From positions 1-49,950 of the forward strand of contig JALSIL010000475.1 of the NCBI GenBank assembly GCA_026990095.1: DNA of 49,950 nt, written 5' to 3'. The position numbers were made by a program, and so were the translations under genes. Below, piece by piece: positions 4,146 to 34,827 of this stretch. Each line of letters opens with the position of its first letter. The first letter of the stretch is position 1. The DNA is from Lysobacterales bacterium (GTDB lineage: Bacteria; Pseudomonadota; Gammaproteobacteria; Xanthomonadales; Marinicellaceae). The notes under the pieces were generated by a model that saw nothing but the letters and a program-made list of their open reading frames with translations, was not told the origin of the DNA and made no database searches.

Positions 4146-4195
4146 TCCCCTAAAAAATTAATAAATGATGATAGAAACGATTAATAAAATTCGCA

Positions 4196-4453
4196 CTAAC
4201 TCATGCTCAATTTATTATCGACAAATGAAATCAATGTTCCCACAGTCTCAAATATTTCTGCATCAATTTCATCATCATCGACAAAAAAACCATATTCTTC
4301 CTCTAACGCAGTAAGTACAGTTACTACAGCCATTGAATCAAATTCAGGAATTGAACCTAATAGAGGAGTATCAAAAGCTAAAGATTTGGCCACATTGCCG
4401 CCTAGCTGCAGAACATCAACCAAAATTGAAATTACATTTTCTTGCGTGGACAT
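4196..4453 (-). CDS. Acyl carrier protein-like
   Basis: 85 aa and acidic. The 'EFDSMAVVTVLTALEEEYG' segment fits the 4'-phosphopantetheine attachment motif (DSx) and helix II. Confidence 0.7.
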   Translation of the reverse strand: MSTQENVISILVDVLQLGGNVAKSLAFDTPLLGSIPEFDSMAVVTVLTALEEEYGFFVDDDEIDAEIFETVGTLISFVDNKLSMS

Positions 4454-4475
4454 AAATACCTTAAATTTAAAAAAC

Positions 4476-5150: not shown

Positions 5151-5524
5151 ACATTCTACCCGAAAAAACAATAAGTCATATCACTCCCACAAGAGGAAGG
5201 CTTGGCGGTTGTGAGTAGCTCCACGGGCTATCAGTTTTAAATGTTTATGCCTCACCATTTTCATTAGCTCTTTTTCCTTCCAACTGATCTTGATTTTTAA
5301 TTTAGCACCTGATTTGCTCTTCTTCAAAACCTGAAATGGACCCTATTAATTGGGCGGTCCAATCAATAGAGTCCATTTCTTATGACTTTTGAAGTCACGG
5401 ACCGAGCCTTAGTAATCAGGAATAATATCTCCCATTTTCCGTAAAGTATTGTTCATTGAAATTTCTATCGTTATAGATGAATTTTAACAAAAAACCTTCG
5501 CAATGAAGAAAGACCCGCCATTTC

Positions 5525-6919
5525 TCAACTTAATTTCGATTTCCGTGTAAACAACAGAAAAAAACCGGAAATAAACAAATAAACTGCCCCAGGAAGTGGA
5601 ACACTTGAAGGCTGCCAATCATTAGGCTTAAATGCCCAAACATCACCATTAACTGGATCAACAACGCCTAAAAAAACATCTAATTCTTTACTATATTTCC
5701 ATTTTCCTAGCACCCCAGTAAAAGCACCAATTTCTGCAAGGCTAGGGAAACCATCTTCATTGCCAAAACTATCAGTTAATAAATTCATTTGCCAACCAGT
5801 CACATCGGCAGGGTCGTCGCCAGGAGTTAGACTCCATATATCTGCCCCACCACCCCAAAGAACAAAACGATCTCTGACTGGGTCAAAATCCATACCGTAA
5901 TCGCCTAACTTAGTAAAATCAAAGCTATCGCTACCTTGAATATCATTTGGTTTAATATTGATATTATTTACAATCTGCCCTGTGGAGTTATCAAGTAACC
6001 AAACGTTGAAATCTTGGGTCCCACCTGAAGTTCTAACGAACATATTTTCAAATGGTGAGTAGGCGCCAGCCCCCTTACCTGAGAAGGTTTGCAAAGCACG
6101 GCCTACTATTTCATAAGAATCTGAAGAGGAGTCAGTAAGATCGTTAACCGTATATTTAAGTAGAGTATTCCCTCCCTGAATATAAAGTACATCTTTACCA
6201 TTTTCGTTTGCGTAAGCAGATGCAGTATTAGTAGTTTGGATAGGTTCTCTATTATCACGGTTTTGCCACATATTACCACCGACTACAGTTTGATCAACTT
6301 GCGAACCTGTAGTCCCACCAACTTTATTTGCATCCGCTTTAGAAGGATCCCAAAAATAAGGCCCTGTCGCAGCACCATCTGGACGCTGAAATCCCCCTCC
6401 AGTCTGATAAGCAGCACCGCCAAATGTTACAAATCGATCAGCAACAGGAAAAAATTCGTTACTATCATAGGTATGACTTGATATTGGAGCGCTATCAACT
6501 CCATCTATAGCAGTATAAAGCCCCCCTGAAATCCTTTTGACTGCACTGGGAAGTGATGCACGTTCCCATTTTAAAGTTGAAGCCCTCCATCGATAAATGT
6601 CATTTCCTGCATAATTTGCATGCCCCCCTCCAAAAAAAACCAGATCCCCTCTATTACTATCCCACGCCATTGAACCCCAAGCTAGGATAATACTAGCAGG
6701 ACTTCCCTCGGTAGTTGGCCGCAAAGAATTAGGTGTCCAAACCTCGCTATATTTATTAGCGTTTAACCTAACCCATTGGTTTTCAGATGCCACTAAAAGT
6801 TTTTGCCCAACTAACGAAGAATTTGAATAAACAAAGTCAGCCGATCGAACCGAACTAATATTGAATATCAAAATGAATAATGAAGAAACAATGCTTAGTG
6901 ATTTTATTATTTTTTTCAT
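5525..6919 (-). CDS. Secreted Kelch/beta-propeller-like protein with C-terminal PEP-CTERM-class sorting signal (VPLPG variant)
   Basis: The N-terminal signal peptide is MKKIIKSLSIVSSLFILIFNISSVRSA. GGG/W repeats recur (FFGGGHANYAGNDIYRW, TFGGAAYQTGGG, LWGGGADIW). The C-terminus SSVPLPGAVYLFISGFFLLFTRKSKLS shows a motif, a TM helix and a basic tail. Confidence 0.7.
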   Translation of the reverse strand: MKKIIKSLSIVSSLFILIFNISSVRSADFVYSNSSLVGQKLLVASENQWVRLNANKYSEVWTPNSLRPTTEGSPASIILAWGSMAWDSNRGDLVFFGGGHANYAGNDIYRWRASTLKWERASLPSAVKRISGGLYTAIDGVDSAPISSHTYDSNEFFPVADRFVTFGGAAYQTGGGFQRPDGAATGPYFWDPSKADANKVGGTTGSQVDQTVVGGNMWQNRDNREPIQTTNTASAYANENGKDVLYIQGGNTLLKYTVNDLTDSSSDSYEIVGRALQTFSGKGAGAYSPFENMFVRTSGGTQDFNVWLLDNSTGQIVNNINIKPNDIQGSDSFDFTKLGDYGMDFDPVRDRFVLWGGGADIWSLTPGDDPADVTGWQMNLLTDSFGNEDGFPSLAEIGAFTGVLGKWKYSKELDVFLGVVDPVNGDVWAFKPNDWQPSSVPLPGAVYLFISGFFLLFTRKSKLS

Positions 6920-6963
6920 TTTTAATAACCTTTTTTAGTAGCTTGATCTCAAATTTATAATAC

Positions 6964-7089
6964 GAATTAAGAGCTAAAAGCACCCTATAATTAAAAAAAT
7001 CAACAACTTACATAATTTTTGTTTTCGCGTATTCAGTTGTTGTCAAGCTAGAATATTGATTTATAATGATAAAATTTAGCTCTTAATTC
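6964..7089. promoter_or_regulatory. Perfect 15-bp inverted repeat (GAATTAAGAGCTAAA / TTTAGCTCTTAATTC) bracketing 96 bp upstream of the PEP-CTERM protein gene
   Basis: Read directly: 6964-6978 and 7075-7089 are exact reverse complements. A third, near-identical copy (TTTTGCTCTTAATTA) lies at 11034-11048 in another intergenic gap of the locus. Confidence 0.3.
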
Positions 7090-8393: not shown

Positions 8394-9047
8394 TTATTTC
8401 CACACACCAAGTCTTTTTAGTTTTTTCATTAATCCATTAGGTGGTTTGCCGTGCTTATATGCCCTTTTGGCATATTCTAATGCCTTTTTATACTCTTTAA
8501 GTTTTACTAATAACAAGCTGTATGAATATTCAAATTTGGAGTTATCCGGGCTAATTTTCAAAGCTTCCTCATATTTTTTGGCAGCCTCTGTTAAACGGCC
8601 AATTTTGGTTAAATAATATCCATAAATAGCATAAAGCGCTGCATCTTTAGGATTATAATTAATAGCTCTTTGTAAATAGCACTCTGGTGAGTTAAGTAAT
8701 TTTTTTGTTGCCAACTTGTTCAATAGTTTAACTTGATAACGTATTGTGCTTAGCAAAGCCTTGTGGTGATTTGGTATCGACCTCAAGGTATAATCTAAAT
8801 CACTAGGCAAAGTTCCTGATTTTCCTTTAATTAGTAATTCAACATTTTTTGTAAAATGAAAAATTTCAACAACCGGAATTTTTTTTTTGTCACTAGGATT
8901 AATGTAATCATAAGGCCCATACCCATACCCAGGAGCCTCACCAACACATGGCACGCCATTTAAACTTGTTCCAACCCAAACCGGCTTTGACTTTGCCTGA
9001 ACTTGAGAAAAAAAAGAACTTATCAGTAATATTGCTAGAAATTTCAT
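8394..9047 (-). CDS. Secreted TPR-repeat protein
   Basis: The signal peptide is MKFLAILLISSFFSQVQA. The C-terminal half has TPR-like A/Y/L spacing (YAIYGYYLTKIGRLTEAAKKYEEALKISPDN...EYKKALEYAKRAY). Confidence 0.65.
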   Translation of the reverse strand: MKFLAILLISSFFSQVQAKSKPVWVGTSLNGVPCVGEAPGYGYGPYDYINPSDKKKIPVVEIFHFTKNVELLIKGKSGTLPSDLDYTLRSIPNHHKALLSTIRYQVKLLNKLATKKLLNSPECYLQRAINYNPKDAALYAIYGYYLTKIGRLTEAAKKYEEALKISPDNSKFEYSYSLLLVKLKEYKKALEYAKRAYKHGKPPNGLMKKLKRLGVWK

Positions 9048-9373
9048 AATGCTATGCAGTACTTACTAAAACAAAGTAGTTTTAGAATTATTGAAAAACC
9101 ACTTTAATTTATCATTTTTTTAAAGATGCGGATAATTTATAATGACCAAAATAATGACGCTTAATCATAAAACTCAGTGTGCACTAGTATGTTTATAACT
9201 CCATAAAGAACTTCATAATATCAAAACTAACTTGACATTGTTTCCAGTAAATATTTTAGGGTATCATAATAACTGAAATTTTGATTTAAATAATTACTAT
9301 TTAGGCCACAAATATATTGACCCTAGTTAAAGTCAACATTCCCTCAATTTTCTTCATTAAAACTATTCAGTTA

Positions 9374-10846
9374 TTATATATTACCAAACACCCTATTAAC
9401 TAAAAATCTTTCTGGGCCTGGCTTCCTGCCTCCTAGCAGCCATAAAAAAATCAAACAAAGACTAAAAACCACAATACCGAGGACAATACCCACCATCAAA
9501 TAAATAATGTCATAATCGATAATAAAATATTGTTTAATATGGATAGTATATTGGTTAACAATGTATCCCATTATTGCACCAGATATAAGCGGCCTATAAA
9601 TACTTATAAAAACGCTTCTAAATCTCATGTTAACTAGTCTATTTAACCTCATTATGCTAATAGGAAACATTATGAGAGAGGAAAATAAAATTGCAAACAC
9701 AGCCCCATTAACTCCATCATTTATTGTCAAAACAACCAAAAGTGGCAAATATATAAATATCCTTAAGCATAGTAATTTTGTTGTTATTTTTTGTTTTGCT
9801 AAAGCTAAGTAAATATAGCTTGAATTTGTATTCAAAGCCTCAAAAGCGCTAGCCAAAGATATTATCTGTATAATAAAAATAGCATCCACCCAATTATCTC
9901 CTAACATAACTGGAACCAGAAAAGGAGCAATTCCAAAAATCCCAAATGCACTAGGGAAAGCTATCAAAGCAATATAGGATAAAGTTTTTAAATATGTTTT
10001 TTTTAATTCGTCCTTATTATGCGATAACTTTGAATACCCAGGATAAGCTGCACGATTAATTGGAGCAATTATCTCTGTCGTTGTAATTGTTGCTATCTCA
10101 TTTGAAACTGAATAAACACCTAAACCTCTACTCCCAACAAATTTGGCCAAAATAAAGTTCTGGCTATAGTTATTTATAAAAAATAAAATATTATTAAGAA
10201 ACAGCCAAAAAGAAAAACTAAACAAATCTTTTATAGCAACAAGTGACAGTTTAGGTCGATAATTTTGCATAATATAACTTAACAACAAAGAGGTTATATT
10301 ACTCGATAGCATACCCAACAATAACGCCCAATAACTTCTCCAATACCATGCTATCGGTATAGTCACAATAAATCCTGAAATTTTAATTAAAACCTGATAA
10401 AGATATTCTTTATTGAAACTTAGCTTTTTTCTGAACTCTACAACACCAATATTATTAAAACCATTTATAAAAATAATTACAGCCATCATTTTTAAAACAT
10501 CAGATAATCGTTCATCCCCATAAAAATCTGCAGTAATATCTGAAACCGACATAATAATTGACGCTGCGGTTATTGCAAAAATGACCTCCATTGTCCATGC
10601 GGTATCATAATGTGTTCTACCTGCTCTTTGGTTCTGTATTAAAGCTGTATCAAAACCAAATTCTCTTATAATATTGACCATCGCATAAACAGCTGAGGCT
10701 AATGCCATCAAACCAAAATCATCAGGCGTCAATAAACGAGCTAAAATCATAGTGCTAATTACACTGATCCCTTTTATACTGAATTTAAGAGCTACCATCC
10801 ATATGGCCCCTCTTGCAATACCTTTATTTATGTTTTGATCTGACAA
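9374..10846 (-). CDS. Wzx-type oligosaccharide flippase (MOP superfamily polysaccharide biosynthesis protein)
   Basis: 490 aa with about 12-14 hydrophobic segments. The N-terminus GAIWMVALKFSIKGISVISTMILARLLTPDDFG is typical of Wzx/RfbX. The start is TTG with AAGGG 8 nt upstream. Confidence 0.75.
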   Translation of the reverse strand: MSDQNINKGIARGAIWMVALKFSIKGISVISTMILARLLTPDDFGLMALASAVYAMVNIIREFGFDTALIQNQRAGRTHYDTAWTMEVIFAITAASIIMSVSDITADFYGDERLSDVLKMMAVIIFINGFNNIGVVEFRKKLSFNKEYLYQVLIKISGFIVTIPIAWYWRSYWALLLGMLSSNITSLLLSYIMQNYRPKLSLVAIKDLFSFSFWLFLNNILFFINNYSQNFILAKFVGSRGLGVYSVSNEIATITTTEIIAPINRAAYPGYSKLSHNKDELKKTYLKTLSYIALIAFPSAFGIFGIAPFLVPVMLGDNWVDAIFIIQIISLASAFEALNTNSSYIYLALAKQKITTKLLCLRIFIYLPLLVVLTINDGVNGAVFAILFSSLIMFPISIMRLNRLVNMRFRSVFISIYRPLISGAIMGYIVNQYTIHIKQYFIIDYDIIYLMVGIVLGIVVFSLCLIFLWLLGGRKPGPERFLVNRVFGNI

Positions 10847-11057
10847 AATAAACCCTTAACAAAATACACCCTACAATTCTGCGCATTTAAAAATACTCAT
10901 AAATTCATAGTTTAATAAATAACAATAAGTTACTACAATAATTACCACAATCAATCAAGCGTTCATTGCATTGCAAAATGAATAGATAGACAAATAGTAA
11001 AGTCGAATTCACCTGTTTATTTTGAAATTCCAATTTTGCTCTTAATTAACCCTTCAC

Positions 11058-12326
11058 CTAACTTTTATCCATAATTTTCAAGAAAACACCTTTTTTTTCT
11101 AGTTGTTTTGAATATTCATTTATCAAAATTACAATAGCAACTATATTCCATGGCAAATCAAAATAAGACAAACTCAGAAAAGCTCCCCCAGAAAAATATG
11201 CTATTAAACTAACTTTCAATAGCTTGGCAAGCAAATAAATATCACGAGCTGCTTCCTTCTTCTTAGTTTCTTTTATTATATTTGATAATGTTTTCCATAC
11301 CCCACAAAATATTAATAAAAAAAGAAATAAACCTACCCAGCCATGATCAGCAAGCACACTGAAATAAATACTGTGAGCAGCATGAACAGCTTCCGGGTTG
11401 GGTGCATAAATCAAAAAAGTATCATAACTCCAAGCATCTAACCCTACTCCAGAAAAATTGTCATTAGCGGCATTAAAGGCATACTCCCATGCATTCAGCC
11501 TCCCCATTGCAGAGCTGTCATTCTGATACGTTTCAATGGTTTCCATCCGTTTATACCAACTCTCAGGCATAAAAGCCAAAAGAACTCCTGCAAATATTAT
11601 TATCAGAAAACCAGAAGCCATTTTACTACTACTTTCTTTCCAATAAAAAAAACCTACACTTAATATAGCAATTAAAGCCCCTCTGGATTGACTTCCCAAA
11701 ACGGTAAATAAGCTCAAAATAATTGCTACTATCATCCCCTTTTTGACCCAGCCATTCTCTGATGTTTGATACAGAAACATCATCAACGGAATGGTCATTA
11801 ATATTGCAACAGCCAGGGCATTATTATCTTCAATAAACCCCCCTGGGGGACCCCAAACTCTTCCACCTCCGGCTGTCACAATAGTATAAATGCCGCCTTT
11901 AATACTATAAAATCCTATGGATAAAACGATAGTCCATATTAGATACCTCATTTTTTCCATATCATCAATTAATAATAATACCAAAAACGTTACCATCTGA
12001 ATTTTAATAATCTTTTTATATTGAATCCATGCATCATCTGGAAAATATGCAAAAAATGTTGATATTCCCATCCATACAATAAAAATTATCCATACTGGTA
12101 AAAGCCAATGTTTGGGAAAGCTTCTTTTTTCTTTTGAAAATAGAAGCGATGCAAATGTAGCAATAGCCACTATCTGCGCAAACGGCATATCAAAAGCAAA
12201 TCCAAACGCCAAGCGATGAGGATTCATATAACTGAGCCACGACCAAACTATAATTCCAATCCATGGACGTTTAAAAATATAGGGTATCGAACCAAACACC
12301 AGGGCCGTAATTAGAATATCGCGCAA
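11058..12326 (-). CDS. O-antigen-ligase-like membrane protein ('putative O-glycosylation ligase, exosortase A system-associated' type)
   Basis: 422 aa and polytopic. The N-terminus MRDILITALVFGSIPYIFKRPWIGIIVWSWLSYMNPHRLAFGFAFDMPFAQI matches my memory of this family. The start is TTG. Confidence 0.7.
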   Translation of the reverse strand: MRDILITALVFGSIPYIFKRPWIGIIVWSWLSYMNPHRLAFGFAFDMPFAQIVAIATFASLLFSKEKRSFPKHWLLPVWIIFIVWMGISTFFAYFPDDAWIQYKKIIKIQMVTFLVLLLIDDMEKMRYLIWTIVLSIGFYSIKGGIYTIVTAGGGRVWGPPGGFIEDNNALAVAILMTIPLMMFLYQTSENGWVKKGMIVAIILSLFTVLGSQSRGALIAILSVGFFYWKESSSKMASGFLIIIFAGVLLAFMPESWYKRMETIETYQNDSSAMGRLNAWEYAFNAANDNFSGVGLDAWSYDTFLIYAPNPEAVHAAHSIYFSVLADHGWVGLFLFLLIFCGVWKTLSNIIKETKKKEAARDIYLLAKLLKVSLIAYFSGGAFLSLSYFDLPWNIVAIVILINEYSKQLEKKGVFLKIMDKS

Positions 12327-13312: not shown

Positions 13313-15109
13313 CTAAATTTTCTTTGCCTGCATCCATAACTCAAGCATCATTAAAATCCATATCAATTCGCCATAATATGCCGCATGAATACTTTGATGC
13401 ATCTTAATCGAATGATCTAGAAAATCCGGGACAAAATAAGACCGTTTTTTTAAACTATTGATGCTGTCATAAGCTAACTCTTTCAATGGCTGAAAGTCTT
13501 TTAACCAAATTCCAAATGGCAACCCAAAACCATGCTTGGATTTATTTAGAATTTCATCGGGCAAAAAACCATTCATCGCATGCTTATAAAACCAGCGTAA
13601 TTTTTGTCCTTTCATTTTAATTGATGAAGGAATTTTAAGTGATAACTTAAGCACTTCATGATCCAGCAGAGGATAATGAACTTCAACACCAGCCATTTCG
13701 CACATTTTGTTGACTTTAACTAAATCATTGTCATGTAAAGTAGTTTTCCAGTCCATATACAGCATTCTATTTAAAGATGTCGCATTTTCTGGACGCCGAT
13801 AGCTATCGCGCAAACTTTCAAGTGGTTGGCTAGTAACTATGTGAGATAAAAAATCTGCCTGGAAAATCTCTTCTGCTTGATGCCTATGCAGAAAATTGTA
13901 ATCTTGCAATCGATCAGGCAAAGGTGTCTCAGCCTGCTCAATGTATCGTTTAGCCTTGAAAATCAGATTGTTATTAGAAACAACTTCAGGTGCTTTTGTT
14001 AGGAAAGATTTCAATAGTTGCCTAAATGGAGCAGGAACAGAAAAATATTTCTCAAAAAGCAGTTGTCTTGCGTAACGCTCATTTCCAGCAAAAAGCTCAT
14101 CACCGCCATCCCCTGCTAACAAAACGTCTATACCATTATCTTTTGCTAACTTAGCGCAATAAAAAGCAGCTAAAGCAGATGAATTTCCGAATGGCTCATC
14201 GTAGTAAGCGGCAATATCAGGAATTGCAGCAACCGTATCTTCCGCTGTTACATAGTATTCATGTTGAATTGTTTTGAAATTCTCTGAAGCAATGCGAGCA
14301 AAAGAGATCTCATCATATCCTTCAACAGGAAACCCCATTGAAAAAGTGTTGGCTTGATCCGGATACACTTTGGCAAGTGCACCAGCTACACTTGAACTAT
14401 CTAATCCACCACTAAGAAAGGCACCCGTTTGCCCCGCACTACTGGATAATCGCTTAACAGATCGAAAAAGCGTTTCTTGGAGTTCTTTACTGGCATCTGA
14501 AAGGGAAAAATCCATTGTTTCTGAAAATGTGGGAACCCAATAGCGATTTAAACTCATTTTCCCTGCTTGGAAAACCAGTTGCTGCCCACCTTCCAGTTTT
14601 TTTACTGATTCATAAATTGTGTTGGGGCTAGGGCAGTGATGAAAATAAACATAATCATAAATAGATTGCAAAAAAATGTTGTTATTTACCTCGGGATGGG
14701 CAATAACTGCATCGGCTGTAGAACTAAAAACCAAACCATTAGGCGTCTCAGCAAAATATAAATTTCTGTGGCCTAAAGGATCAATAGCAAGCAATAGTTT
14801 TTTGTTTTCAGTGTCAATAATAATTAATGAGAAATCTCCTTTGACATTATTAATGAACTGATCGCCATTTTCCAAATAGTCTTTGGCTATCTTTGTTAAA
14901 TCATCCCTTTCATTTAACCCACCTCCGTAACCAATAAAAATACATTGTCCTAATTCGGTAATGTGATTTTCTGTTGCTGAACAAACAGAAAATGATGTCG
15001 CCAATGTTTTGACTTTGTTTCTATATTGTTTAGGTGCATATTCAGTCATCTTAGTTGATAACTCAATAGCTCCCAAATTACTGCCAACCCAACCCGCTAC
15101 AAATCCCAT
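13313..15109 (-). CDS. Asparagine synthase family protein, paralogue 2, lacking the N-terminal catalytic cysteine
   Basis: It starts MGFVAGWVG where canonical enzymes have MCGIxG. It retains the synthetase domain: FLSGGLDSS PP-loop, YDEPFGNSSA and LAGDGGDELF. Confidence 0.8.
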   Translation of the reverse strand: MGFVAGWVGSNLGAIELSTKMTEYAPKQYRNKVKTLATSFSVCSATENHITELGQCIFIGYGGGLNERDDLTKIAKDYLENGDQFINNVKGDFSLIIIDTENKKLLLAIDPLGHRNLYFAETPNGLVFSSTADAVIAHPEVNNNIFLQSIYDYVYFHHCPSPNTIYESVKKLEGGQQLVFQAGKMSLNRYWVPTFSETMDFSLSDASKELQETLFRSVKRLSSSAGQTGAFLSGGLDSSSVAGALAKVYPDQANTFSMGFPVEGYDEISFARIASENFKTIQHEYYVTAEDTVAAIPDIAAYYDEPFGNSSALAAFYCAKLAKDNGIDVLLAGDGGDELFAGNERYARQLLFEKYFSVPAPFRQLLKSFLTKAPEVVSNNNLIFKAKRYIEQAETPLPDRLQDYNFLHRHQAEEIFQADFLSHIVTSQPLESLRDSYRRPENATSLNRMLYMDWKTTLHDNDLVKVNKMCEMAGVEVHYPLLDHEVLKLSLKIPSSIKMKGQKLRWFYKHAMNGFLPDEILNKSKHGFGLPFGIWLKDFQPLKELAYDSINSLKKRSYFVPDFLDHSIKMHQSIHAAYYGELIWILMMLELWMQAKKI

Positions 15110-15126: not shown

Positions 15127-16476
15127 CTAAATAGTAACTTTACTAATCACGTACCTGAACTTACCCGATTTTTCTTTTTTAATTTCGTTCAGGTATTCAA
15201 ATATAACTTCTATTTTTTTACCTAAACGTTTTTTAAACTCTTGTTTAATATAATCTAGTTGTTTGGGGTTAAATTCATTATTCTTTACAATCTGGACAAT
15301 TATCTTATCCTTGCTTTCTTGAATAATTTTAAATGCGGCAATCCCTTCCAAATCCCTAAGCACATAAATTAATGCCAAACCATGTAATATAGTACCATCC
15401 TGTGCGACAACAAAATCAGTTGTCCTGCCTTGAATTTCTTTAAGTATAGGCAAACCTCGCCCACACGAACAAGTATCATCTGATAAAACACCAATATCAC
15501 CGGTACGATATCTTATAAAAGGAAAATCCTGGGTAGCGAGATGAGTAACCACAACTTCTCCACTCTCACCTTTTGGGAGCACATTCCCTTCACCATCAAT
15601 AATTTCAACGATAATATCTTCAGCAGAAATATGCATCGATCCCGATGGACATTGATGCGCAATAAAGCCAGCATCCCTGCCTCCGTAGCCATTTGCCACA
15701 GGGCAAGCAAACATGCGCTCAATTATTTCGCGCTGATGATCATACAATTTTTCTGAAGTAACAAACGCGACTTTAATATCCAATTCGCTAAATGTTACAC
15801 CTTTTTTTTCAGCGTGACTTGCAATATGTGCAAGAGCGGATGGATATCCGAAAAGCATTTTTGGCTTGATGGTTTTAATTTGTTGAATAAAACCATCAAG
15901 ATTTTTTTTTGACATTTCAAAAGCCGGCACCAAATGGCTGCGGATAACTTTATCCCTCAACATTTTAATTTTGTCTTGGGATCCAAGTTCGACAGGTGAA
16001 CCCCAGATTACAATTTCCGGATCACCAATATCGACACCCCACCATCTGGTAGCTCTCCATTTCGCGGCCACGTCATGTGTAACCCTGTCCTTACCAATAA
16101 AAAAAATTAAAGGTTCGCCACTTGATCCACCAGTATTATACCGGGCTAAGCTCTCGGCATTATCTGATTTTAAGCGCTCAGTATTTGAACGTATTTCTTT
16201 TTTACCAAACAATGGAATTTTGGTTAACTCATTCAGGTTCGTAATGTTTGATGGTTCAAGCCCTGTAGCCTCAAAAATTTCTCGATAGTAAGGCACATCA
16301 CGACCCACAATTGTCAAAAAATCTTTTAGCTTCGTTATTTGAATTTGTTCAATTTCTCCAGATGAAAACCACTGTGATTTTTCCAGTTCTTTTCTAACAG
16401 TGACTGAGTCATGCTTTTTTATATATTCATGCAAAGGAAAAATTACATTTGAAACTAGCCGTGTATATAAACTCAT
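15127..16476 (-). CDS. Adenylate-forming enzyme, phenylacetate-CoA ligase / CapK-like
   Basis: 449 aa. It has YNTGGSSGEPL (a P-loop-like AMP motif), GYGGRD, and a YRTGD-type motif (RYRTGDIG). The architecture is typical of PaaK/CapK/F390-synthetase-like proteins in capsule loci. Confidence 0.7.
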   Translation of the reverse strand: MSLYTRLVSNVIFPLHEYIKKHDSVTVRKELEKSQWFSSGEIEQIQITKLKDFLTIVGRDVPYYREIFEATGLEPSNITNLNELTKIPLFGKKEIRSNTERLKSDNAESLARYNTGGSSGEPLIFFIGKDRVTHDVAAKWRATRWWGVDIGDPEIVIWGSPVELGSQDKIKMLRDKVIRSHLVPAFEMSKKNLDGFIQQIKTIKPKMLFGYPSALAHIASHAEKKGVTFSELDIKVAFVTSEKLYDHQREIIERMFACPVANGYGGRDAGFIAHQCPSGSMHISAEDIIVEIIDGEGNVLPKGESGEVVVTHLATQDFPFIRYRTGDIGVLSDDTCSCGRGLPILKEIQGRTTDFVVAQDGTILHGLALIYVLRDLEGIAAFKIIQESKDKIIVQIVKNNEFNPKQLDYIKQEFKKRLGKKIEVIFEYLNEIKKEKSGKFRYVISKVTI

Positions 16477-18030: not shown

Positions 18031-18633
18031 ATGAGTTCAATAAAAAAACATCAGAAAGATAATACCCTATCGCCAAAACGAAGGGCTATAATTAAAGGTT
18101 CCGCCACTGCAGTGCCATTGGTCCTAACATTACGAAGCGGCGCCGCATTTGCTGCTACTAGTGCTACTGCCTGTGTTGTTAATACCCAGAATTTTCTTAA
18201 AAACAACCCGGACAGTAAACCAGTAACCCTCCTGGAAAACGGTCAATCAGAAACAATATCCTATGTTAGGGTTTTGACAACGGGACGTGTTCTTGAGGAA
18301 ATTAATGTGGCTCCCGGGGCTACCCCGGAAACTCTTGCCGTATTTTTGGATCCTAACTCCCCATATCCAGATGGATCAATCGCTCGATGGTACAATGTTG
18401 AAGAAAACAACATGTCTATGACCTATTATACGAATGCACAGGGATCAGTACGCATGGTTAATCAATCTGGCACAAAGACATACAGAGTTACAGAAGAACA
18501 AACTGATTGCGCAGTTTTATGCTATGTTAATGCTGATGGCAAGCCTTACAGCCCACCGGTTTATGGAAGTGCACCAGGTGATGGTACATTTCCTTTCGCA
18601 ACAACATCTTGCATGGCGTCAATTACTGGATAA
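18031..18633 (+). CDS. Hypothetical exported protein with Tat-like signal peptide, 4 Cys in the mature part
   Basis: SPKRRAIIKGSATAVPLVLTLRSGAAFA|AT shows a twin-Arg, an h-region and AxA. GGAG lies about 10 nt upstream of the ATG, and a perfect TATAAT sits at 17986-17991. I recognise no family. Confidence 0.6.
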   Translation: MSSIKKHQKDNTLSPKRRAIIKGSATAVPLVLTLRSGAAFAATSATACVVNTQNFLKNNPDSKPVTLLENGQSETISYVRVLTTGRVLEEINVAPGATPETLAVFLDPNSPYPDGSIARWYNVEENNMSMTYYTNAQGSVRMVNQSGTKTYRVTEEQTDCAVLCYVNADGKPYSPPVYGSAPGDGTFPFATTSCMASITG

Positions 18634-18881
18634 TTTGTATTTGACACAAAATAAAAGTATAACAGCAGTAAGTTTTCCACCCTGTAACCATCAATTCGCT
18701 GCCTTTATTTGCAGCGGATTGAAACCTTTTCAGCAGCGATTCGGTTTTTGTTAAACCCCCTCTCAATTCCTGTATCCAATAGTTGATTGCGAATTTAAGC
18801 AAGGTAATCTACACTTTACTTTTACTTCAGTTATTGTCATTTCTTAAACTTGAATTATTGGAGATAAGTTTTTAGTCCTTT

Positions 18882-19190
18882 ATGCATGAAGTGAAGAAAC
18901 AAATCCAATCTCGTAAATGGAGCGTTCCCCAAAATACCACCTTGCTTATTAAGCAGCGGCAAGATAGTGCAATTGTTTTTCATTCAAAATCCGGAGAAAC
19001 ACACCAGCTTAATGATATTGGAATAGCGGCATTACTGATCATTCAGCAACACCCTGTTTCGCTGAACGATCTAGCCGATCAAATTAATAAGCTTTACGAG
19101 GTCGAAACCCCATCTGAGTTAACTGTCCGGCTGCAGCGACTGGTAAAAGATTTTGAAATACTTGGTCTAATAGAACCATTCAAAGAATGA
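18882..19190 (+). CDS. PqqD-family peptide chaperone / RiPP-recognition-element-like protein ('HPr-rel-A system' type)
   Basis: 102 aa. SGETHQLNDIGIAALLIIQQHPVSLNDLADQINKLYEV...RLVKDFEILGLIE follows the PqqD winged-helix pattern. An ATGA overlap links it to the next gene. Confidence 0.7.
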   Translation: MHEVKKQIQSRKWSVPQNTTLLIKQRQDSAIVFHSKSGETHQLNDIGIAALLIIQQHPVSLNDLADQINKLYEVETPSELTVRLQRLVKDFEILGLIEPFKE

Positions 19191-20104
19191 AATTGAGTCA
19201 CTATTCAGTACCCGAACTGCTTAAAAAAGCATCAAGTAATAATGGAATAATATTACTTGTCGGGCCATTTTCAGTACGCCTTCGTACCCGTAACCACCAA
19301 TTAGTGAGTAATCTTCGTGACCTTTACCAGGACTTTTCAACCTGCTCAGTCAAAAATCAAATTGTTGATTTTCACATTGATATGTTTTCTCCATCAAATC
19401 ATCGTCGCTGGATAAAACCGCAAATTAATTTCAGCATTGATGGCTTATTCCCTTTCAGTCCTTTTTCTGTTTCTCATGCAACTCCCTTATTTGAGTGGGG
19501 GTTTAATTGGTGTATCGCCCGTAACGCACAAAATTTTCTATTACTCCATGCCGCTGTTCTTGAAAAAAACAACAAATCTTTAATTCTTCCAGCTCTGCCC
19601 GGTTCCGGGAAAAGCACCCTTGCAGCGGCACTAAGCCACTCCGGCTGGCGTTTTTTATCTGATGAATTTTGCATTATTCACCCTAGCGATGGGAAAATTA
19701 TCCCAATTCCCAGACCAACCCCATTAAAAAATGAATCCATCCAAATTATTCGTGATTTTTCTCCTGACACATTTATCGGACCGCTATTTCACAATACCCG
19801 TAAGGGAACCATTGGACATTTAAGATCACCAACTTCGGCAATTGAACAACAGCATAAACCAGGAACACCCCGTTGGATTATTTTTCCAAGATATCAATCA
19901 AGCTCAAAAACCACTTTAATGCCTTTGGATAAATCCTTTTCGCAGATGAAATTAGCTTCAAACGCGTTTAATTATGAAATTCAAAGTGAAGTGGGTTTCA
20001 AAACAGTGACCAGAATGGTTGATAATTGCGATTGCTATAATTTGACATTTAGTACTCTCAATTCCGCTATTTCCATACTCGACACCCTGGCTGATAATGT
20101 CTGA
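19187..20104 (+). CDS. HprK-related P-loop kinase ('HprK-related kinase A' type)
   Basis: LHAAVLEKNNKSLILPALPGSGKSTLAAALSHSGWRFLSDEFCII resembles the HPr kinase C-terminal domain: a Walker A followed by (L/V)SDE/D. Confidence 0.75.
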   Translation: MKLSHYSVPELLKKASSNNGIILLVGPFSVRLRTRNHQLVSNLRDLYQDFSTCSVKNQIVDFHIDMFSPSNHRRWIKPQINFSIDGLFPFSPFSVSHATPLFEWGFNWCIARNAQNFLLLHAAVLEKNNKSLILPALPGSGKSTLAAALSHSGWRFLSDEFCIIHPSDGKIIPIPRPTPLKNESIQIIRDFSPDTFIGPLFHNTRKGTIGHLRSPTSAIEQQHKPGTPRWIIFPRYQSSSKTTLMPLDKSFSQMKLASNAFNYEIQSEVGFKTVTRMVDNCDCYNLTFSTLNSAISILDTLADNV

Positions 20105-21203
20105 TAATTTTCATTCCGAAAAAAACTTTATATTTAATTTCCTGCAAAACCCGGAAATTTCTAACTCATACACCAAGCAACAGTGGTCCTTGCTGCTGAG
20201 AATAGCTAGAAACGCTAATATTCTCGCTCATATTGGTTGGCTACTAAAACTAAAAAACATTTTTGATGATGCCCCATCAAAAGTAAAAGACAATATCAAT
20301 GCCGCACAAACAATCGTTGAATATAGAAAACAAACTGCACTTTGGGAGCTAGATCGACTTCACCATGCATTAAATGGTATTGGCACTGATATTATTGCTC
20401 TAAAGGGCGGCGCTTATCTCATTGCGCAGCTGCCTTTTTCAGAAGCCAGAATGTTTGCCGATATAGATATCCTGGTCAAAAAAGAAAAAATTGAAATGAT
20501 TGAAGATATGCTACTCAAGCAGAGCTGGAAATCAATGAAAATGGACGATTATGATCAGAAATATTACCGAGAATGGTCGCATGAAATTCCACCACTTAGA
20601 CATATCGCACGCACCATAGAAGTTGATATCCACCACACAATTATACCGCCAACCAGCCGCTTAAACCCTGATCCACAAAAACTTCTGGCAGAAACAGTTG
20701 CCTCAAACGAAAATGGTTTTAAAACTCTTTCTTCTTATGACATGACATTGCATAGCGCAACGCATCTTTTTTATGATTCGGATCTGGATAACAAGCTGAA
20801 AGATCTAATTGATCTTGATCAACTTATCACTCACTTTTGCAAAAAAGAGAACGATTTTGTTAATAAATTGATAGTTCGTGCAGGCGAATTGGATTTACAG
20901 CGACCACTTTTTTATACGCTTTATTTCACACAAAAGCTGCTTGGGACAAAAATCACTGCCAATGAGTTAAAAAATTCCAAGAAAATTAGCGGCGTTTCCT
21001 TTCCTACTGTTATTTTAATGGATATTTTAGTTCCTTTAGCAATCTTACCTGAACATCCAGATTTTCCTAGACTTACAGTTCGATTTGCCAGATGGCTTCT
21101 TTATATTCGGTCACATTATTTGAGAATGCCTTTGAAACTTCTAATACCGCATCTGCTATACAAAAGCAAAACCCGCTGGGAAGCAAGCAAAAGTGCTGCT
21201 TAG
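20097..21203 (+). CDS. Nucleotidyltransferase family protein (PF14907 / NTP_transf_5-like)
   Basis: ALKGGAYLIAQLPFSEARMFADIDILVKKEKIEMIEDMLLKQSW fits the uncharacterised nucleotidyltransferase family pattern. Its start overlaps the kinase gene by 8 bp (ATGTCTGA). Confidence 0.7.
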   Translation: MSDNFHSEKNFIFNFLQNPEISNSYTKQQWSLLLRIARNANILAHIGWLLKLKNIFDDAPSKVKDNINAAQTIVEYRKQTALWELDRLHHALNGIGTDIIALKGGAYLIAQLPFSEARMFADIDILVKKEKIEMIEDMLLKQSWKSMKMDDYDQKYYREWSHEIPPLRHIARTIEVDIHHTIIPPTSRLNPDPQKLLAETVASNENGFKTLSSYDMTLHSATHLFYDSDLDNKLKDLIDLDQLITHFCKKENDFVNKLIVRAGELDLQRPLFYTLYFTQKLLGTKITANELKNSKKISGVSFPTVILMDILVPLAILPEHPDFPRLTVRFARWLLYIRSHYLRMPLKLLIPHLLYKSKTRWEASKSAA

Positions 21204-23089
21204 CTTGCACTCCTTAAAAATGATTCAAACATCAACAAACTCCAAATAGGTGCACTATAATCTTTGACGCCTGCCTGATGTTGGTCAACCATTTTTCTTA
21301 AAAACTTTTGATCGAACAAATTACTATCACTCATCGCAGCACCCAGTAACGATTCCCGAACTCGTTCCTTTAAGGGACCTCTAAACCAAGACGACAAGGG
21401 GATTGAAAAACCCATTTTAGGCCGATACAAAATATCCTCGGGCAAATATTTTTCCAGTGATTTTTTAAAAATATATTTTCCCTCCTTCCCATGCAGCTTT
21501 AATTCCGGCCTTAATCCGGCCATCCACTCCACAAGCTGGTGATCAAGAAGCGGAACTCTGACCTCTAGTGAGTGCGCCATACTAGCCCGATCTACCTTAG
21601 TTAAAATATCTCCAGGAAGATAGGTTTTGATATCCAGGTACTGCACCAAAGAAAGCGGATCGTTAACAGGTGCTTTTTCACTATGTCTTCTAAATACTTC
21701 AACAGCTTGATATCCTTGCAGCTGATTTTTCAAAGATGGGCTGAATAATTGCTTTCGCAGATCATCAGTCGAAATTGATACACTGTGAAAATAACCCGCA
21801 ACTGAATCACGAGCAATGGACTGAAATGTAGATTTAGCACGAAAAATCTTTGGCGCCCAATCAGCCTTTGGATAAATTTTCCCTAATGCTCCAAAGACTG
21901 GCTGCCTGATGGTATTTGGCAGCCAGGACCGCATCTGCTCTTCATAGGTATGCCAGCGATATCGCCGATAACCCGCAAGGTTTTCATCACCCCCATCACC
22001 AGAAAGCACCACAGTCACCTGTTTTTTTGCCAACTCGCAGACTCGATAAGTAGGAAGCGCAGAACTATCAGCATATGGCTCATCATATAAACTGGACAAC
22101 TTATCGATCAAACTATAGTCATCAGGATCAACCTGCTCTACTCGATGTTTAGTATGGTATTGTTGCGCTACCTTTTCAGCAAATTGTGACTCATTAAATT
22201 CGGGGTCACCAAATGAAATTGAACAAGTATTCACTGGATCCTGAGAATGCTGGGCCATCATAGCAACGACCGCACTGGAATCAACGCCCCCTGAAAGGAA
22301 AGCACCAAGAGGCACATCGGCAACCATACGAATTTTTACTGCTTCCTGAAGCCGCTCAATTAACTCATCCTGAATTTGATTTTCTTCTCCATGCTTATTG
22401 ACAGAAAAATTAACATCCCAATATTTTCTGGCAATCAAACCTTTTTTGCCGCGCTTTATCGTTAGAGAATAACCAGGTTCCAACTTATATACATTTTTGT
22501 AAATCGTTTTTGGATCAGGTATATAACCAAATCCAAAGTACTCTTCAATGGCAGTAGGTTCCAGCTCTTTAGAAAATTCAGGATGGGCAACTAATGACTT
22601 TAATTCCGAGCCAAAAATAAAATGCCCATTGGTAAGTTCAGTATAAAATAATGGCTTAATTCCCAGTCTGTCTCTGGCTAAAAAAAGAACATCTTTCATT
22701 CTATCCCAAATTGCAAAAGCAAACATCCCTCTTAATCGATCAACACACCTTTCACCCCACGCTTGCCACGCATACAAAATAACCTCTGTGTCACAATGGG
22801 TATTAAACACATAACCAAGTTTTTCGAGTTCAGCCCTCAATTCAGGAAAATTATATACCTCGCCGTTATATGTCAAAATTGCATTTCCATCTTGACTTAC
22901 CATTGGTTGCTGGCCATGCGATAAATCAATAATCGACAGACGCCGATGAGCCAGCCCTAAACCAGCTTCTGTATGGATTCCACCCTCATCTGGACCTCGA
23001 TGGAATTGAGTTTCATTCATTTTTGAAAGCAACTCACGATTAATTTCACGCTTTCCCTTTAGATCAAAAATTCCCGTTATTCCACACAT
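21200..23089 (-). CDS. XrtA/PEP-CTERM system amidotransferase (asparagine synthase paralogue 3)
   Basis: 629 aa. Motifs are MCGITGIFD...HRGPDE...RRLSIIDL, FLSGGVDSS, YDEPYADSSA and LSGDGGDENLAGY. It sits beside the locus-specific GT, as in XrtA loci. Confidence 0.85.
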   Translation of the reverse strand: MCGITGIFDLKGKREINRELLSKMNETQFHRGPDEGGIHTEAGLGLAHRRLSIIDLSHGQQPMVSQDGNAILTYNGEVYNFPELRAELEKLGYVFNTHCDTEVILYAWQAWGERCVDRLRGMFAFAIWDRMKDVLFLARDRLGIKPLFYTELTNGHFIFGSELKSLVAHPEFSKELEPTAIEEYFGFGYIPDPKTIYKNVYKLEPGYSLTIKRGKKGLIARKYWDVNFSVNKHGEENQIQDELIERLQEAVKIRMVADVPLGAFLSGGVDSSAVVAMMAQHSQDPVNTCSISFGDPEFNESQFAEKVAQQYHTKHRVEQVDPDDYSLIDKLSSLYDEPYADSSALPTYRVCELAKKQVTVVLSGDGGDENLAGYRRYRWHTYEEQMRSWLPNTIRQPVFGALGKIYPKADWAPKIFRAKSTFQSIARDSVAGYFHSVSISTDDLRKQLFSPSLKNQLQGYQAVEVFRRHSEKAPVNDPLSLVQYLDIKTYLPGDILTKVDRASMAHSLEVRVPLLDHQLVEWMAGLRPELKLHGKEGKYIFKKSLEKYLPEDILYRPKMGFSIPLSSWFRGPLKERVRESLLGAAMSDSNLFDQKFLRKMVDQHQAGVKDYSAPIWSLLMFESFLRSAS

Positions 23090-32421: not shown

Positions 32422-34827
32422 TTAACTAACGACAGGTTTTAACAACTTATCTAACAATTTTTTTGCTGCTTCGTTTTCTGCGAAGCCACCTTGTTTTTTT
32501 CCTAATTCAATTGCTTGTTTTAACTCAGAAATTGCAACGGAGTCTTGACCTGCTTGGTGATAAGCCACACCTAAATGGAACTTGAAAACTGGAATTGACG
32601 CAGCAACACTATTAACTTTTTTAAGAGCTTCCAAGGCTTTAGATAAATTACCCAGCTTGAGTTCGGTCCATGCATAGGTATCAAGATAAAAAGGTTGTTT
32701 GGAATCTTTAAACCTGGTTGCAAGCTGTCTTGCCTTTTGTAAACTTTCCTGATCCCCAAAAAAATCTACAAGCAATGAAGCATATTCATTCGCAACCACA
32801 TCTAATTTGTCATTTTTTCCTATTAACATTTCATAGATATCTGCGGCATTTTTATACTGATCGGTTCTTTTGTAAACTGCTGCTAATTTCAGAGGGATTT
32901 TCAAATTATCCGGTATTGCAGCTTGTCCCTTCAATAAACTCTTAATGGCATCTTGATATTTTCGTTGCTGTAAATAAGTGTCTGCCAGGGTCAAATAAAT
33001 CTGTGGCACCTTATCATTAACTTTTAAAGCTTCTTCTAAAGTTGCAATTGCTTTATCAAATTGTTTATTTAATAAATATAGTTTACTTTTGACAAGATAC
33101 GCAGGAATATTACCTTTTGTTTGGGTAATTAAAGAAGAAAGATAATCAAGCATCTTGTCTCTTTGATTCAATGCCTCATAACTCCGCGCCATCTCCTGCA
33201 TTGCATCAAGCTGATATGGCATTTTTGTTAATAATTCTTTATATTTTTCAACTGCCTTATTATATTCTTGCTTTTCTTGAAAAACCTTAGCCTGCATAAA
33301 CATTGCAATCAAGGCGCCTTTATTCGGCTGTTTTGACATTACCTGTAAAATCTTTTCAGCCGCATCCCAATCCTTTTCAACCATTTTGATTTGAGCGAGC
33401 TTTTGTAAAAGCATAATATTTCCTGGCTTTTGCTTCAAAGCCTGACTTAATATTTCAGTCGCATAGCCAAAATTTTGTTCTTTTATTAAATTATTGACTA
33501 CTGGAAACAACGCATTGAGATTTGAGGGATTAATTTCCAGGGCTTCACGAAACTTTCTAACAGCTTGCTTTTCATTACCATCCAATAATTCAAGCTGGGC
33601 CAGCATGACTATCGTTTCGTCCGATTTTGGATGACTCCATAGCACTGAAGTCAGCAATGTTTTAGCTTCTTGATACTTTTTGTTGACCACTAAAATCCTT
33701 GCTTGAAGAATCTGTGCATCTTTATTCTCCGAATCCTCTTCAAGAATACCATTAATCAGGGAAGAAGCAGTTTCAAAATCTTGTTGTTGAAAAGCCATTT
33801 TAGCCAACAACAATTGTGCTTCGTGCTTTTCTGGTTTCGATTTTGATTGAGCAATCTTCTCTAAATATTTTTTTGCAGACTCAGGTTTTTTTCTTAATAA
33901 CAACCATTTACTTAATTGCAAAAGTTCTTTGGGTTGATTTCCATATTGATCTGCATATTTATTAAATTGCTGCATAGCCTTGTTTTCATCAAGGCTTACC
34001 AGAAAACTAAGCAATACAAATTTGGGTCTGATGCTTTTTGGATTTTCAGCGACATATTCTCGCAACAACTTCTCCGCCTCTTCTGGCTTTTTGGCATGTA
34101 CTAGCAGTTTGGCTAGAGCGATTTTCAGTTGATCCTTCTTTGGATACATTTTTATTAATTGCTGATACTCTCTGATAACAGCATCAATATCTTTCTTCTT
34201 GGCATTCAGTTGTATCTTCAACAAATGTAGCGAAGGATTTTCAGCATTTGCCTCAATAGCCGGTTCAAGTATGGAAAGCGCTTCATCGAAATCTTCATTT
34301 TCCATGTAAACCACTGCTTTCAAAGAGACTGCATCAACATTCCCCGGGTCTTGTTGCAAAATACCGTCAATAACAGGCAAAGCTTCACCTGACTTTTTCT
34401 GCCTGATTAATATTGCCGCTTTCAACGATAATGCATCCAAATCATCAGGCTTCTTTTCGATTACATAATCTGCCTGTTTTGCTGCACTTTCAACATCGTT
34501 AAATAACAACAAGACCTTACCTAATTTAAGGCGGGCATCAATGTTATCCGGCTCAAGCTTAACAGCCTGCTCCAGATTCTCTTTCATTGCTGGATAATTA
34601 CGGCTTTTTTCATTTAATAAAGCCATGGTGTAATATGAATCTGCAAGATTGTCATTGCTCTGAATAGCGCTTTTTAACTCTAACTCAGCGCTTTTCAGAT
34701 CACCTTTTTCCAATAATTCTTTTCCTCGAGCAAGTCGTTCTTGCGCTTGCTCTTGTTCATTTTGACAAGCGGTCAAGACCCAAAGGCTCAAGCCCACAGC
34801 CATCATTATTTTTTTCAATTTATACAT
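32422..34827 (-). CDS. prsT: PEP-CTERM system TPR-repeat lipoprotein PrsT
   Basis: 801 aa with the lipobox LWVLTAC and TPR repeats wall to wall. It sits at the head of the export gene set. Confidence 0.8.
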   Translation of the reverse strand: MYKLKKIMMAVGLSLWVLTACQNEQEQAQERLARGKELLEKGDLKSAELELKSAIQSNDNLADSYYTMALLNEKSRNYPAMKENLEQAVKLEPDNIDARLKLGKVLLLFNDVESAAKQADYVIEKKPDDLDALSLKAAILIRQKKSGEALPVIDGILQQDPGNVDAVSLKAVVYMENEDFDEALSILEPAIEANAENPSLHLLKIQLNAKKKDIDAVIREYQQLIKMYPKKDQLKIALAKLLVHAKKPEEAEKLLREYVAENPKSIRPKFVLLSFLVSLDENKAMQQFNKYADQYGNQPKELLQLSKWLLLRKKPESAKKYLEKIAQSKSKPEKHEAQLLLAKMAFQQQDFETASSLINGILEEDSENKDAQILQARILVVNKKYQEAKTLLTSVLWSHPKSDETIVMLAQLELLDGNEKQAVRKFREALEINPSNLNALFPVVNNLIKEQNFGYATEILSQALKQKPGNIMLLQKLAQIKMVEKDWDAAEKILQVMSKQPNKGALIAMFMQAKVFQEKQEYNKAVEKYKELLTKMPYQLDAMQEMARSYEALNQRDKMLDYLSSLITQTKGNIPAYLVKSKLYLLNKQFDKAIATLEEALKVNDKVPQIYLTLADTYLQQRKYQDAIKSLLKGQAAIPDNLKIPLKLAAVYKRTDQYKNAADIYEMLIGKNDKLDVVANEYASLLVDFFGDQESLQKARQLATRFKDSKQPFYLDTYAWTELKLGNLSKALEALKKVNSVAASIPVFKFHLGVAYHQAGQDSVAISELKQAIELGKKQGGFAENEAAKKLLDKLLKPVVS

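Follow-up and report, generated by a model that had tools for sequence, protein, structure and literature searches.

What do the PqqD-like protein and the HprK-related kinase A that are catalogued together as the HPr-rel-A system act on? The question is raised by a stretch of 49,950 nucleotides (positions 1 to 49,950 of contig JALSIL010000475.1 from the Lysobacterales bacterium assembly GCA_026990095.1; the window hereafter), in which such a pair is encoded with a nucleotidyltransferase-fold protein (NTase) of family PF14907 in a plus-strand island (18031–21203) within an exopolysaccharide (EPS) locus of the XrtA type. The pair has existed so far as annotation only, with no substrate and no literature, and is widespread: homologues of the kinase fall into 2405 clusters and relatives occur in at least 562 species representatives of the scanned genomes. 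The island is one four-gene operon, and its first gene, open reading frame (ORF) A, codes for a protein of precursor-like architecture that is, in our assessment, rather likely to be the substrate of the kinase and the NTase, guided to them by the PqqD-like protein acting as a recognition element for ribosomally synthesised and post-translationally modified peptides (RiPP recognition element, RRE).

Between 1161 and 41187 all ORFs of at least 150 aa lie on the minus strand except ORF-A and the kinase and NTase genes (Table 1), and the ORF of the PqqD-like protein is likewise on the plus strand, which bears out the island among minus-strand EPS genes noted in a preliminary description made from the sequence alone. 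The overlaps noted there are also present: the TGA stop of the pqqD-like gene (19188–19190) and the kinase ATG (19187–19189) share an ATGA of 4 bp (19187–19190), and the NTase ATG at 20097 creates an overlap of 8 bp (20097–20104) with the kinase gene, whose stop codon occupies 20102–20104. The strand island is confirmed and the interpretation attached to it is in part supported; its statement that the system has no known substrate is not supported, the uninterpreted 200-aa gene at the very start of the island being a conserved, precursor-like fourth member of the cassette. A neighbourhood survey, which the same description had suggested, was run on 80 loci of other species fetched via the kinase and found the co-varying fourth gene, the ORF-A family, directly upstream. 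Kinase and NTase were present in all 80 loci and PqqD, by iterated search, in 80 as well, and jackhmmer recovered an ORF-A-related, leader-bearing protein directly upstream of PqqD on the same strand in 76; a divergent leader-bearing upstream protein in locus L072 raises this to about 77, and L009 is cut at a contig end. All genes share one strand, and the median gap is 16.5 bp between precursor and PqqD and -4 bp at each of the next two junctions. Clustering of all ORFs from the 80 loci yielded no fifth gene conserved beyond lineage-specific synteny, no protease and no transporter among them. Recurrence of the gene set in 80 of 80 fetched loci is not due to chance, and since the NTase, PqqD and a leader-bearing upstream protein accompany the kinase and no fifth gene is conserved, 18031–21203 constitutes a single four-gene operon. 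Cassettes of this kind occur in Gamma-, Beta- and Alphaproteobacteria together with Magnetococcales.

ORF-A is annotated as a gene in related NCBI assemblies, it matches no Pfam or NCBIfam family, and its database homologues are nameless or called 'hypothetical protein'; when 48 upstream proteins were scanned with Pfam and NCBIfam, nothing came up apart from weak matches to twin-arginine translocation (Tat) signals. What the upstream proteins have in common is an N-terminal segment, not a domain. In ORF-A this segment (residues 1–41) is a Tat-like leader with S14-x-K-R-R-A-I-I-K-G, the h-region GSATAVPLVLTL and the c-region RSGAAFA; it reads S14-P-K-R-R-A-I-I-K-G-SATAVPLVLTL-RSGAAFA/ATSATAC, where the slash marks the predicted signal-peptidase site (AFA/ATSATAC) that places S44 at +3. 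A logo of 72 upstream proteins anchored on the T-L motif contains R at -15 (97%) and -14 (82%), G at -10 (71%), P at -4 (53%), V, I or L at -2 (98%), then T (96%), L (94%), any residue and S (93%), and finally A at +8 (86%), which is position -1 of the predicted cut. The consensus is RR-x12-13-P-x-[VIL]-[LMF]-T-L-x-S. The spacing from RR to TL is 15–17 residues in 70 of the 72 proteins, the first Cys follows 11–17 residues past the T in 70 of 72, and a Ser lies at most 4 residues from that Cys in 68 of these 70, giving the family order of RR leader, T-L-x-S, AxA site, Ser-rich stretch and Cys. Every formal element of a Tat signal is found in the leader (S/T-R-R-x-hydrophobic-hydrophobic-K, a 12-residue h-region free of charges, a basic c-region and AxA), and its Tat-like character is supported by motif; unlike generic signal peptides it also has an invariant T-L-x-S at a set spacing. 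When 24,498 open segments were searched with a hidden Markov model (HMM) of the leader alone, exactly one ORF matched in each cassette, and ORF-A was the sole match in the window. Two other views of the upstream element were rejected: the residues preceding the conserved Cys form no lipobox that would make it a lipoprotein site, and small ORFs in both intergenic regions, checked as short precursor peptides, are not conserved, the conserved upstream element being the 200-aa ORF-A.

Behind the leader the family varies widely. The mature part of ORF-A (about 159 aa) has 4 Cys and the C-terminal motif T-S-C-M-A-S; in an alignment of its own subfamily (A2) residues 14–48 are nearly invariant and S44 is invariant, with overall identity down to 31–50%. 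Conservation within the family is confined to the leader, the residues directly following it and a short motif at the C-terminus, and the mature parts fall into classes unrelated by BLAST. Class I, which includes the window, has highly variable mature parts of 90–190 aa ending in G-S-C-[WYLM]-x-S; a short subclass ends in V-A-I-L-S-S-x-S-A-x-S; class II (Thiobacillus type) is marked by C-x-G-C-T-P-G-Y-W and H-x-V-A-A-L-L-N-A, and many of its members also have R-G-C-P-L at the C-terminus. Cys counts in the mature parts are mostly even and thus fit with export to an oxidising compartment. An exhaustive profile search for the ORF-A family against 1.84 billion representatives (E<=1e-3) returned 512 cluster representatives, many of which match only from the leader to a few dozen residues into the mature part; the sequences inspected have the leader, the S...C stretch and a C-terminal G-S-C-W-x-S around hypervariable, sometimes low-complexity middles that reach 352 aa. 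Three class-I precursors of 300–350 aa (P0195, P0213 and P0194) carry long low-complexity or repeated acidic inserts, e.g., DPVEEAGMS, between the leader and GSCWxS. The precursor gene of locus L067 is split by a frameshift (8979–9374 and 9378–9668) in an otherwise intact cassette.

The three proteins encoded after ORF-A belong to recognisable families. The PqqD-like protein matches TIGR04353 with 43.3 bits (cutoff 35) and PF05402 at the borderline (23.5 bits, cutoff 23.4), has a conserved core VYxxxSGxTHxL and, with a profile of 45 PqqD proteins (A4), finds its best solved relatives in the lasso-peptide RREs TfuB1 (6jx3, E 7.6e-4) and TbiB1 (5v1u, E 2.6e-3). The kinase matches TIGR04352 over its full length (residues 3–280 of 280) with 369.9 bits (cutoff 200). 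H121, K142, D159, E160 and G139-x-G-K-S-T are invariant in 18 diverse homologues, a set of the His-Lys-Asp-Asp type with Asp-Glu replacing Asp-Asp. Its AlphaFold 2 (AF2) model (mean pLDDT 92.5) retrieves with Foldseek ATP-dependent phosphoenolpyruvate carboxykinase (PEPCK) over the full length (E ~1e-6, TMq 0.54) and HprK/P with the nucleotide-binding half (E ~2e-3, TM ~0.28 on the query); judged from this model it is a P-loop kinase of the PEPCK/HprK superfamily, the double fold match being the known relationship within that superfamily. The NTase matches PF14907 with 167.2 bits (cutoff 31.2) over residues 27–283 and bears the G-G...D-x-D type signature KGGAY...x13...DIDILV. A sequence search of the PDB with the kinase and the NTase gave no meaningful relative. 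The motifs reported in the preliminary description are all in place (LPALPGSGKST...FLSDEF, containing its LPGSGKST and LSDEF; FADIDILV, containing ADIDILV), and the families that it named were recovered above or, for PF05402, at the cutoff, with the exception of PF07475, to which we return below. Its proposal of a leader-binding PqqD/RRE, a kinase of the HprK superfamily and a PF14907 NTase working on a peptide or protein gains support from the lasso RRE relatives, the PEPCK/HprK fold and the catalytic residues.

A link between these enzymes and the upstream protein is suggested by their co-divergence. Leader class agrees between nearest neighbours for 65 of 65 kinases, 51 of 51 NTases and 61 of 65 PqqD proteins. 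Taxonomy is a general confounder of such a pattern. In a Methylomonas metagenome-assembled genome (locus L005) two complete cassettes stand in tandem (4163–7046 and 8995–12012), one of each class and each with its own RRE, kinase and NTase. Either enzyme set sorts with its own class, the class-II enzymes falling among those of betaproteobacterial class-II cassettes and apart from the enzymes encoded beside them in this genome. This removes the taxonomic confound and leaves the pattern that is expected if the upstream protein is the substrate.

How the operon might work can be pictured from described systems. Linear polyphosphorylated peptide (LPP) clusters of Bacillota comprise LppA, LppB, LppK, LppS, LppD and LppN (Popov et al., Nat Commun 2026; PMC13381572). 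Their precursors (35–200 aa) have a conserved N-terminus and a variable C-terminus, LppB is a discrete RRE and the HprK-like LppK polyphosphorylates core Ser3; LppS, a signal peptidase similar to signal peptidase I (SpI-like, SipW-type), needs the RRE for leader cleavage, and the exporter LppD is an MsbA-like pump (PMC13381572). The leader motif is YxxPxVLxHQxIxFETxxS, with [Y/W]xxP bound by the RRE, and the clusters are embedded in capsular polysaccharide loci and, according to the authors, restricted to Bacillota (PMC13381572). In pseudomycoidin, PsmK and PsmN add phosphates and then hexoses to Ser, PsmN putting the hexose on the phosphate (PMC6993621), and lasso-peptide kinases have a His-Lys-Asp-Asp motif in common (PMC9266682). 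On this pattern the operon would make a secreted-type precursor plus the machinery that modifies it before export. The PqqD-like protein would bind P-x-[VIL]-[LMF]-T-L-x-S of the leader as an added beta-strand and present the precursor, as homology to lasso B1 proteins and LppB suggests, and the HprK-related kinase would move at least one phosphate from ATP to a Ser in the manner of PadeK, ThcoK, PsmK and LppK. The likeliest site would be the Ser-rich stretch past the leader, at S44 (predicted +3; compare LppA core Ser3); other candidates are two Ser of the C-terminal motif (S193 and S197) and S36 in the leader, the last being weakened because Asn stands there in 7% of members. The PF14907 enzyme might then put a hexose or a nucleotide onto the phosphate, as PsmN suggests. 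Because of the form of the leader and the lack of a conserved protease or exporter, the leader would also serve as an export signal of the Tat (or Sec) type, and the roles of LppS and LppD would fall to signal peptidase I and the general export machinery. The product would be a phosphorylated, possibly glycosylated, disulfide-bonded protein of the periplasm or surface, often made together with XrtA-type EPS. The two main parts of this proposal differ in strength: ORF-A as RRE-guided substrate of kinase and NTase is the better founded and, on the comparative evidence, somewhat favoured, whereas export by Tat, read from the leader motif, comes near an even chance at best.

It is unlikely that the trio modifies ORF-A but that the leader is purely of the RiPP type, cut by an unlinked protease, with the product leaving the cell in another way or staying inside. 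The absence of any protease or transporter conserved with the cassette in the 80 loci, the complete set of formal Tat elements in the leader and the even Cys counts, which suggest an oxidising compartment, all tell against this, notwithstanding the weak HMM support for a Tat or Sec signal, an invariant T-L-x-S whose fixed spacing is foreign to generic signal peptides and the precedent of an LPP leader cut by a dedicated, RRE-dependent peptidase.

The surroundings of the cassette bear on a second alternative. In the window, 12 marker families of XrtA/PEP-CTERM systems exceed their cutoffs in the flanks (TIGR03108, TIGR03088, TIGR03019, TIGR03006, TIGR03015, TIGR03016, TIGR03018, TIGR03007, TIGR03027, TIGR03097, TIGR03100 and TIGR03101), covering an amidotransferase (TIGR03108), an stp2 glycosyltransferase, FemAB, a deacetylase, an ATPase, an outer-membrane protein, a tyrosine autokinase, a chain-length determinant, an export protein, an O-ligase and hydrolases 1 and 2; both genes flanking the cassette code for EPS enzymes. 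A PrsT-like tetratricopeptide repeat protein (32422–34827) scores 266 bits, below its cutoff of 312, and no window ORF of at least 150 aa was identified as the exosortase gene xrtA, which may lie outside the window. XrtA-system genes occur in the fetched flanks of 20 of the 80 loci, and the 54 loci that span 15 kb or more include 15 such cases, both counts being lower bounds that score homologues of the window's own proteins only. Within XrtA loci the cassette has at least three different insertion points: between the GT4 gene and the amidotransferase gene (window and close relatives), between the export gene and PrsT (Massilia, Duganella, Telluria) and adjoining the export gene (L058). On the other hand, about 23 loci (Thiobacillus, Hydrogenophilales) have hemA-prfA-prmC upstream and grx4, ntrBC and glnA downstream, and in most loci the cassette has no EPS gene within 10 kb. 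Obligatory linkage to XrtA was rejected on these grounds (about 25% of loci linked, others among housekeeping genes). Recruitment to the PEP-CTERM/EPS pathway, which the preliminary description had proposed, is thus only partly supported, with 20 XrtA-linked loci and roughly 23 among housekeeping genes. Given both the linkage at several points and the housekeeping contexts, the association with EPS loci is recurrent and probably meaningful, and the cassette is nonetheless self-contained.

The second alternative makes ORF-A a merely co-transcribed secreted protein and lets the trio act on another target, for instance a small peptide missed in annotation, a PEP-CTERM protein or an EPS or lipid intermediate. 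About a quarter of the loci lie inside XrtA-type EPS loci, with several insertion points, a PEP-CTERM-like protein is encoded in the window (5525–6919) and a homologue abuts the cassette in L067, and PF14907 enzymes are without a proven acceptor. Yet most cassettes have no EPS gene within 10 kb, no further ORF, small ones included, shows conservation, the divergence of the enzymes follows the leader class of the protein encoded upstream even inside one genome, and a PqqD/RRE implies a peptide leader, of which ORF-A alone has a conserved one; we rate this explanation a shade below the preceding one. That the kinase is a regulatory HprK-like switch on a signalling or carrier protein controlling EPS, with PqqD and NTase as accessory regulators, is very improbable in spite of a fold related to HprK/P and a tyrosine autokinase encoded in the same EPS locus, as no HPr-like gene is nearby, HprK/P is only remotely related and PEPCK closer in overall fold, the kinase is obligately paired with an RRE and a leader-bearing protein, and it is also found away from EPS genes.

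Any explanation has to start from what was observed: the gene content, order and coupling, the leader–core architecture, the co-divergence and the family and fold assignments. The substrate, the acceptor residue, the added group and each catalytic step of modification of ORF-A are all inferred, and several findings weigh against it. The AF2 model of ORF-A is poor (mean pLDDT 57, residues 1–53 disordered, a beta core at 77–170) and gave only noise with Foldseek (best E 0.28), hence no fold match. Among the 48 upstream proteins the Tat HMMs match weakly, PF10518 in 5 (best E 0.12) and TIGR01409 in 4 (best E 0.0074), and ORF-A of the window matches neither; part of the leader conservation may stem from export constraints alone. 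Two high-GC loci (L038 and L062) have PqqD, kinase and NTase and no recognisable leader-bearing ORF upstream. The window kinase does not match PF07475 (Hpr_kinase_C) even at E<=10, and 9 of its 18 relatives match weakly, all below significance (best E 0.0037). The comparison with LPP has its own discrepancies: the leader here is Tat-like, with RR and T-L-x-S, and the full LPP motif is absent; it has no aromatic [Y/W]xxP of the LPP or lasso kind, P-x-V-L being the only resemblance; the mature parts here are Cys-containing proteins of 90–230 aa, not short peptides; and LppN is an NTP-transferase for which no activity was seen in the heterologous LPP system (PMC13381572).

Table 1. Features of the plus-strand island (coordinates in the window)
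Feature	Position	Strand	Size or remark
ORF-A, candidate precursor/substrate protein	18031..18633	+	200 aa
RNA hairpin in the ORF-A/pqqD spacer	18692..18721	+	centroid fold, kept in relatives
PqqD-family RiPP recognition element (RRE), predicted leader-binding chaperone	18882..19190	+	102 aa
HprK-related kinase A, predicted Ser kinase for ORF-A	19187..20104	+	305 aa
PF14907 (NTP_transf_5) nucleotidyltransferase-fold protein (NTase)	20097..21203	+	368 aa

The spacer between ORF-A and pqqD measures 248 bp in the window and its centroid fold is dominated by a hairpin with an 11-bp stem and an 8-nt loop (Table 1). The stem is kept in L083 and L084 through U.G->U-A and C-G->U.G changes, with diverging loop and flanks. 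An intrinsic terminator after ORF-A was rejected because the hairpin has no T-run; it may be an element of mRNA processing, stability or attenuation that sets the ratio of precursor to enzymes. A block GTAATCTACACTT at 18804–18816 (+) of the same spacer is conserved with the hairpin in the otherwise diverged spacers of L083 and L084, and the spacer of L085 has 21 bp only.

Several neighbouring genes were noted as well. The PEP-CTERM-like protein at 5525–6919 (-) has 464 aa, a Sec-type signal and a C-terminal VPLPGAVYLFISGFFLLFTRKSKLS tail resembling a PEP-CTERM sorting signal (PLP variant), without a Pfam or NCBIfam match; its homologue in L067 (6520–8706) is directly upstream of the cassette. 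Three asparagine-synthase-family paralogues lie on the minus strand at 1–1090 (running off the edge), 13313–15109 and 21200–23089, the last alone reaching the cutoff of TIGR03108. A CapK_C/PaaK-like adenylate-forming enzyme (15127–16476, -) stands beside the GT4 gene immediately upstream of, and divergent from, the cassette, an arrangement kept in the close relatives L081–L083. An NAD-dependent epimerase-like gene lies ahead of the trio in L062.

For the HPr-rel-A pair the operon itself now offers a candidate substrate with residues to mutate (R17/R18, T33/L34/S36, S44 and S193/S197), together with the export-signal character of the leader and a link to LPP outside Bacillota. The tendency to lie in polysaccharide loci is found in both phyla, which makes a biological role, perhaps in the biofilm matrix, testable in tractable proteobacteria, among them Methylotuvimicrobium, Massilia and Thiobacillus; a homologue (P0050) is present in Methylotuvimicrobium alcaliphilum 20Z. 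That the trio primes a linkage between protein and polysaccharide is speculation.

Four described systems can be set beside the cassette. The HPr-rel-A system of NCBIfam (TIGR04352 plus TIGR04353) includes it directly: the window pair is adjacent and passes both curated cutoffs, and in terms of sequence the cassette is a regular representative of a system that is catalogued but unstudied. The catalogue entry consists of a name only, NCBIfam has no model for the NTase or for the ORF-A precursor family, and the searched literature contains no mention of TIGR04352, TIGR04353 or 'HprK-related kinase A'.

Tat proofreading chaperones, i.e., redox enzyme maturation proteins (REMPs) of the TorD, DmsD and NapD type, provide a functional analogy only, in that a small cytoplasmic protein is proposed to hold a twin-arginine leader until maturation. 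The fold differs (a PqqD winged helix versus the all-helical TorD family or the ferredoxin-like NapD), and maturation here would be a covalent modification, not the insertion of a cofactor. A bolder and tentative version, which we hold to be possible but rather unlikely, is that a PqqD-type RRE has been co-opted as a chaperone that proofreads a Tat signal, holding a full-size precursor in the cytoplasm until kinase and NTase have placed a phospho-(glyco/nucleotidyl) group beside the signal-peptidase site, after which Tat export and ordinary signal peptidase would act instead of a RiPP protease and pump; RiPP leader logic would thereby serve secreted proteins. If true, this would possibly be the first case of an RRE reading an export signal, and more than 500 proteobacterial species would make phosphoglycosylated matrix proteins capable of linking protein and exopolysaccharide.

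Phosphorylated and glycosylated lasso peptides (PadeK/ThcoK; PsmK/PsmN) resemble the cassette in the RRE, the HprK-family kinase with His-Lys-Asp-Asp and the NTP-transferase-like enzyme, and their kinases act on the linear precursor and can add several phosphates. They differ in that the cassette has no B2 protease and no lasso cyclase, no B2-like gene being conserved in the 80 loci, and that lasso peptides, about 20 aa long, are modified at their C-terminal Ser. A relic lasso cluster with the neighbouring AsnB as cyclase was rejected, as that protein scores 1071 bits with TIGR03108 (cutoff 817) versus 266 with NF033535 (cutoff 525) and most cassette loci have no AsnB gene at all.

The closest described system is LPP, which the preliminary description had not taken into account. 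Shared by the two are a precursor whose N-terminal leader is conserved and whose C-terminal core varies, a separate RRE of the PqqD type, an HprK-like kinase and an NTP transferase, without a lasso cyclase, the enzymes being likened by family or fold and by description; both are often found inside polysaccharide biosynthesis loci, and Ser3 just past the leader cut of LppA (A-Q-S) has a counterpart here in the Ser-rich stretch past the predicted cut (A-T-S in the window). The window cassette differs by the lack of a conserved SpI-like leader peptidase and of an MsbA-like exporter, and by its hosts, which are proteobacteria and Magnetococcales instead of Bacillota. The leader protease of LPP is itself a signal-peptidase homologue; here the leader is signal-peptide-like and the operon has no further genes. 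Viewed in this comparative light, the cassette is probably the proteobacterial counterpart of a peptide-phosphorylating system known until now from Bacillota only, and if the link holds, RRE-guided (poly)phosphorylation of Ser would be a broad bacterial way of decorating secreted proteins rather than an oddity of Bacillota.

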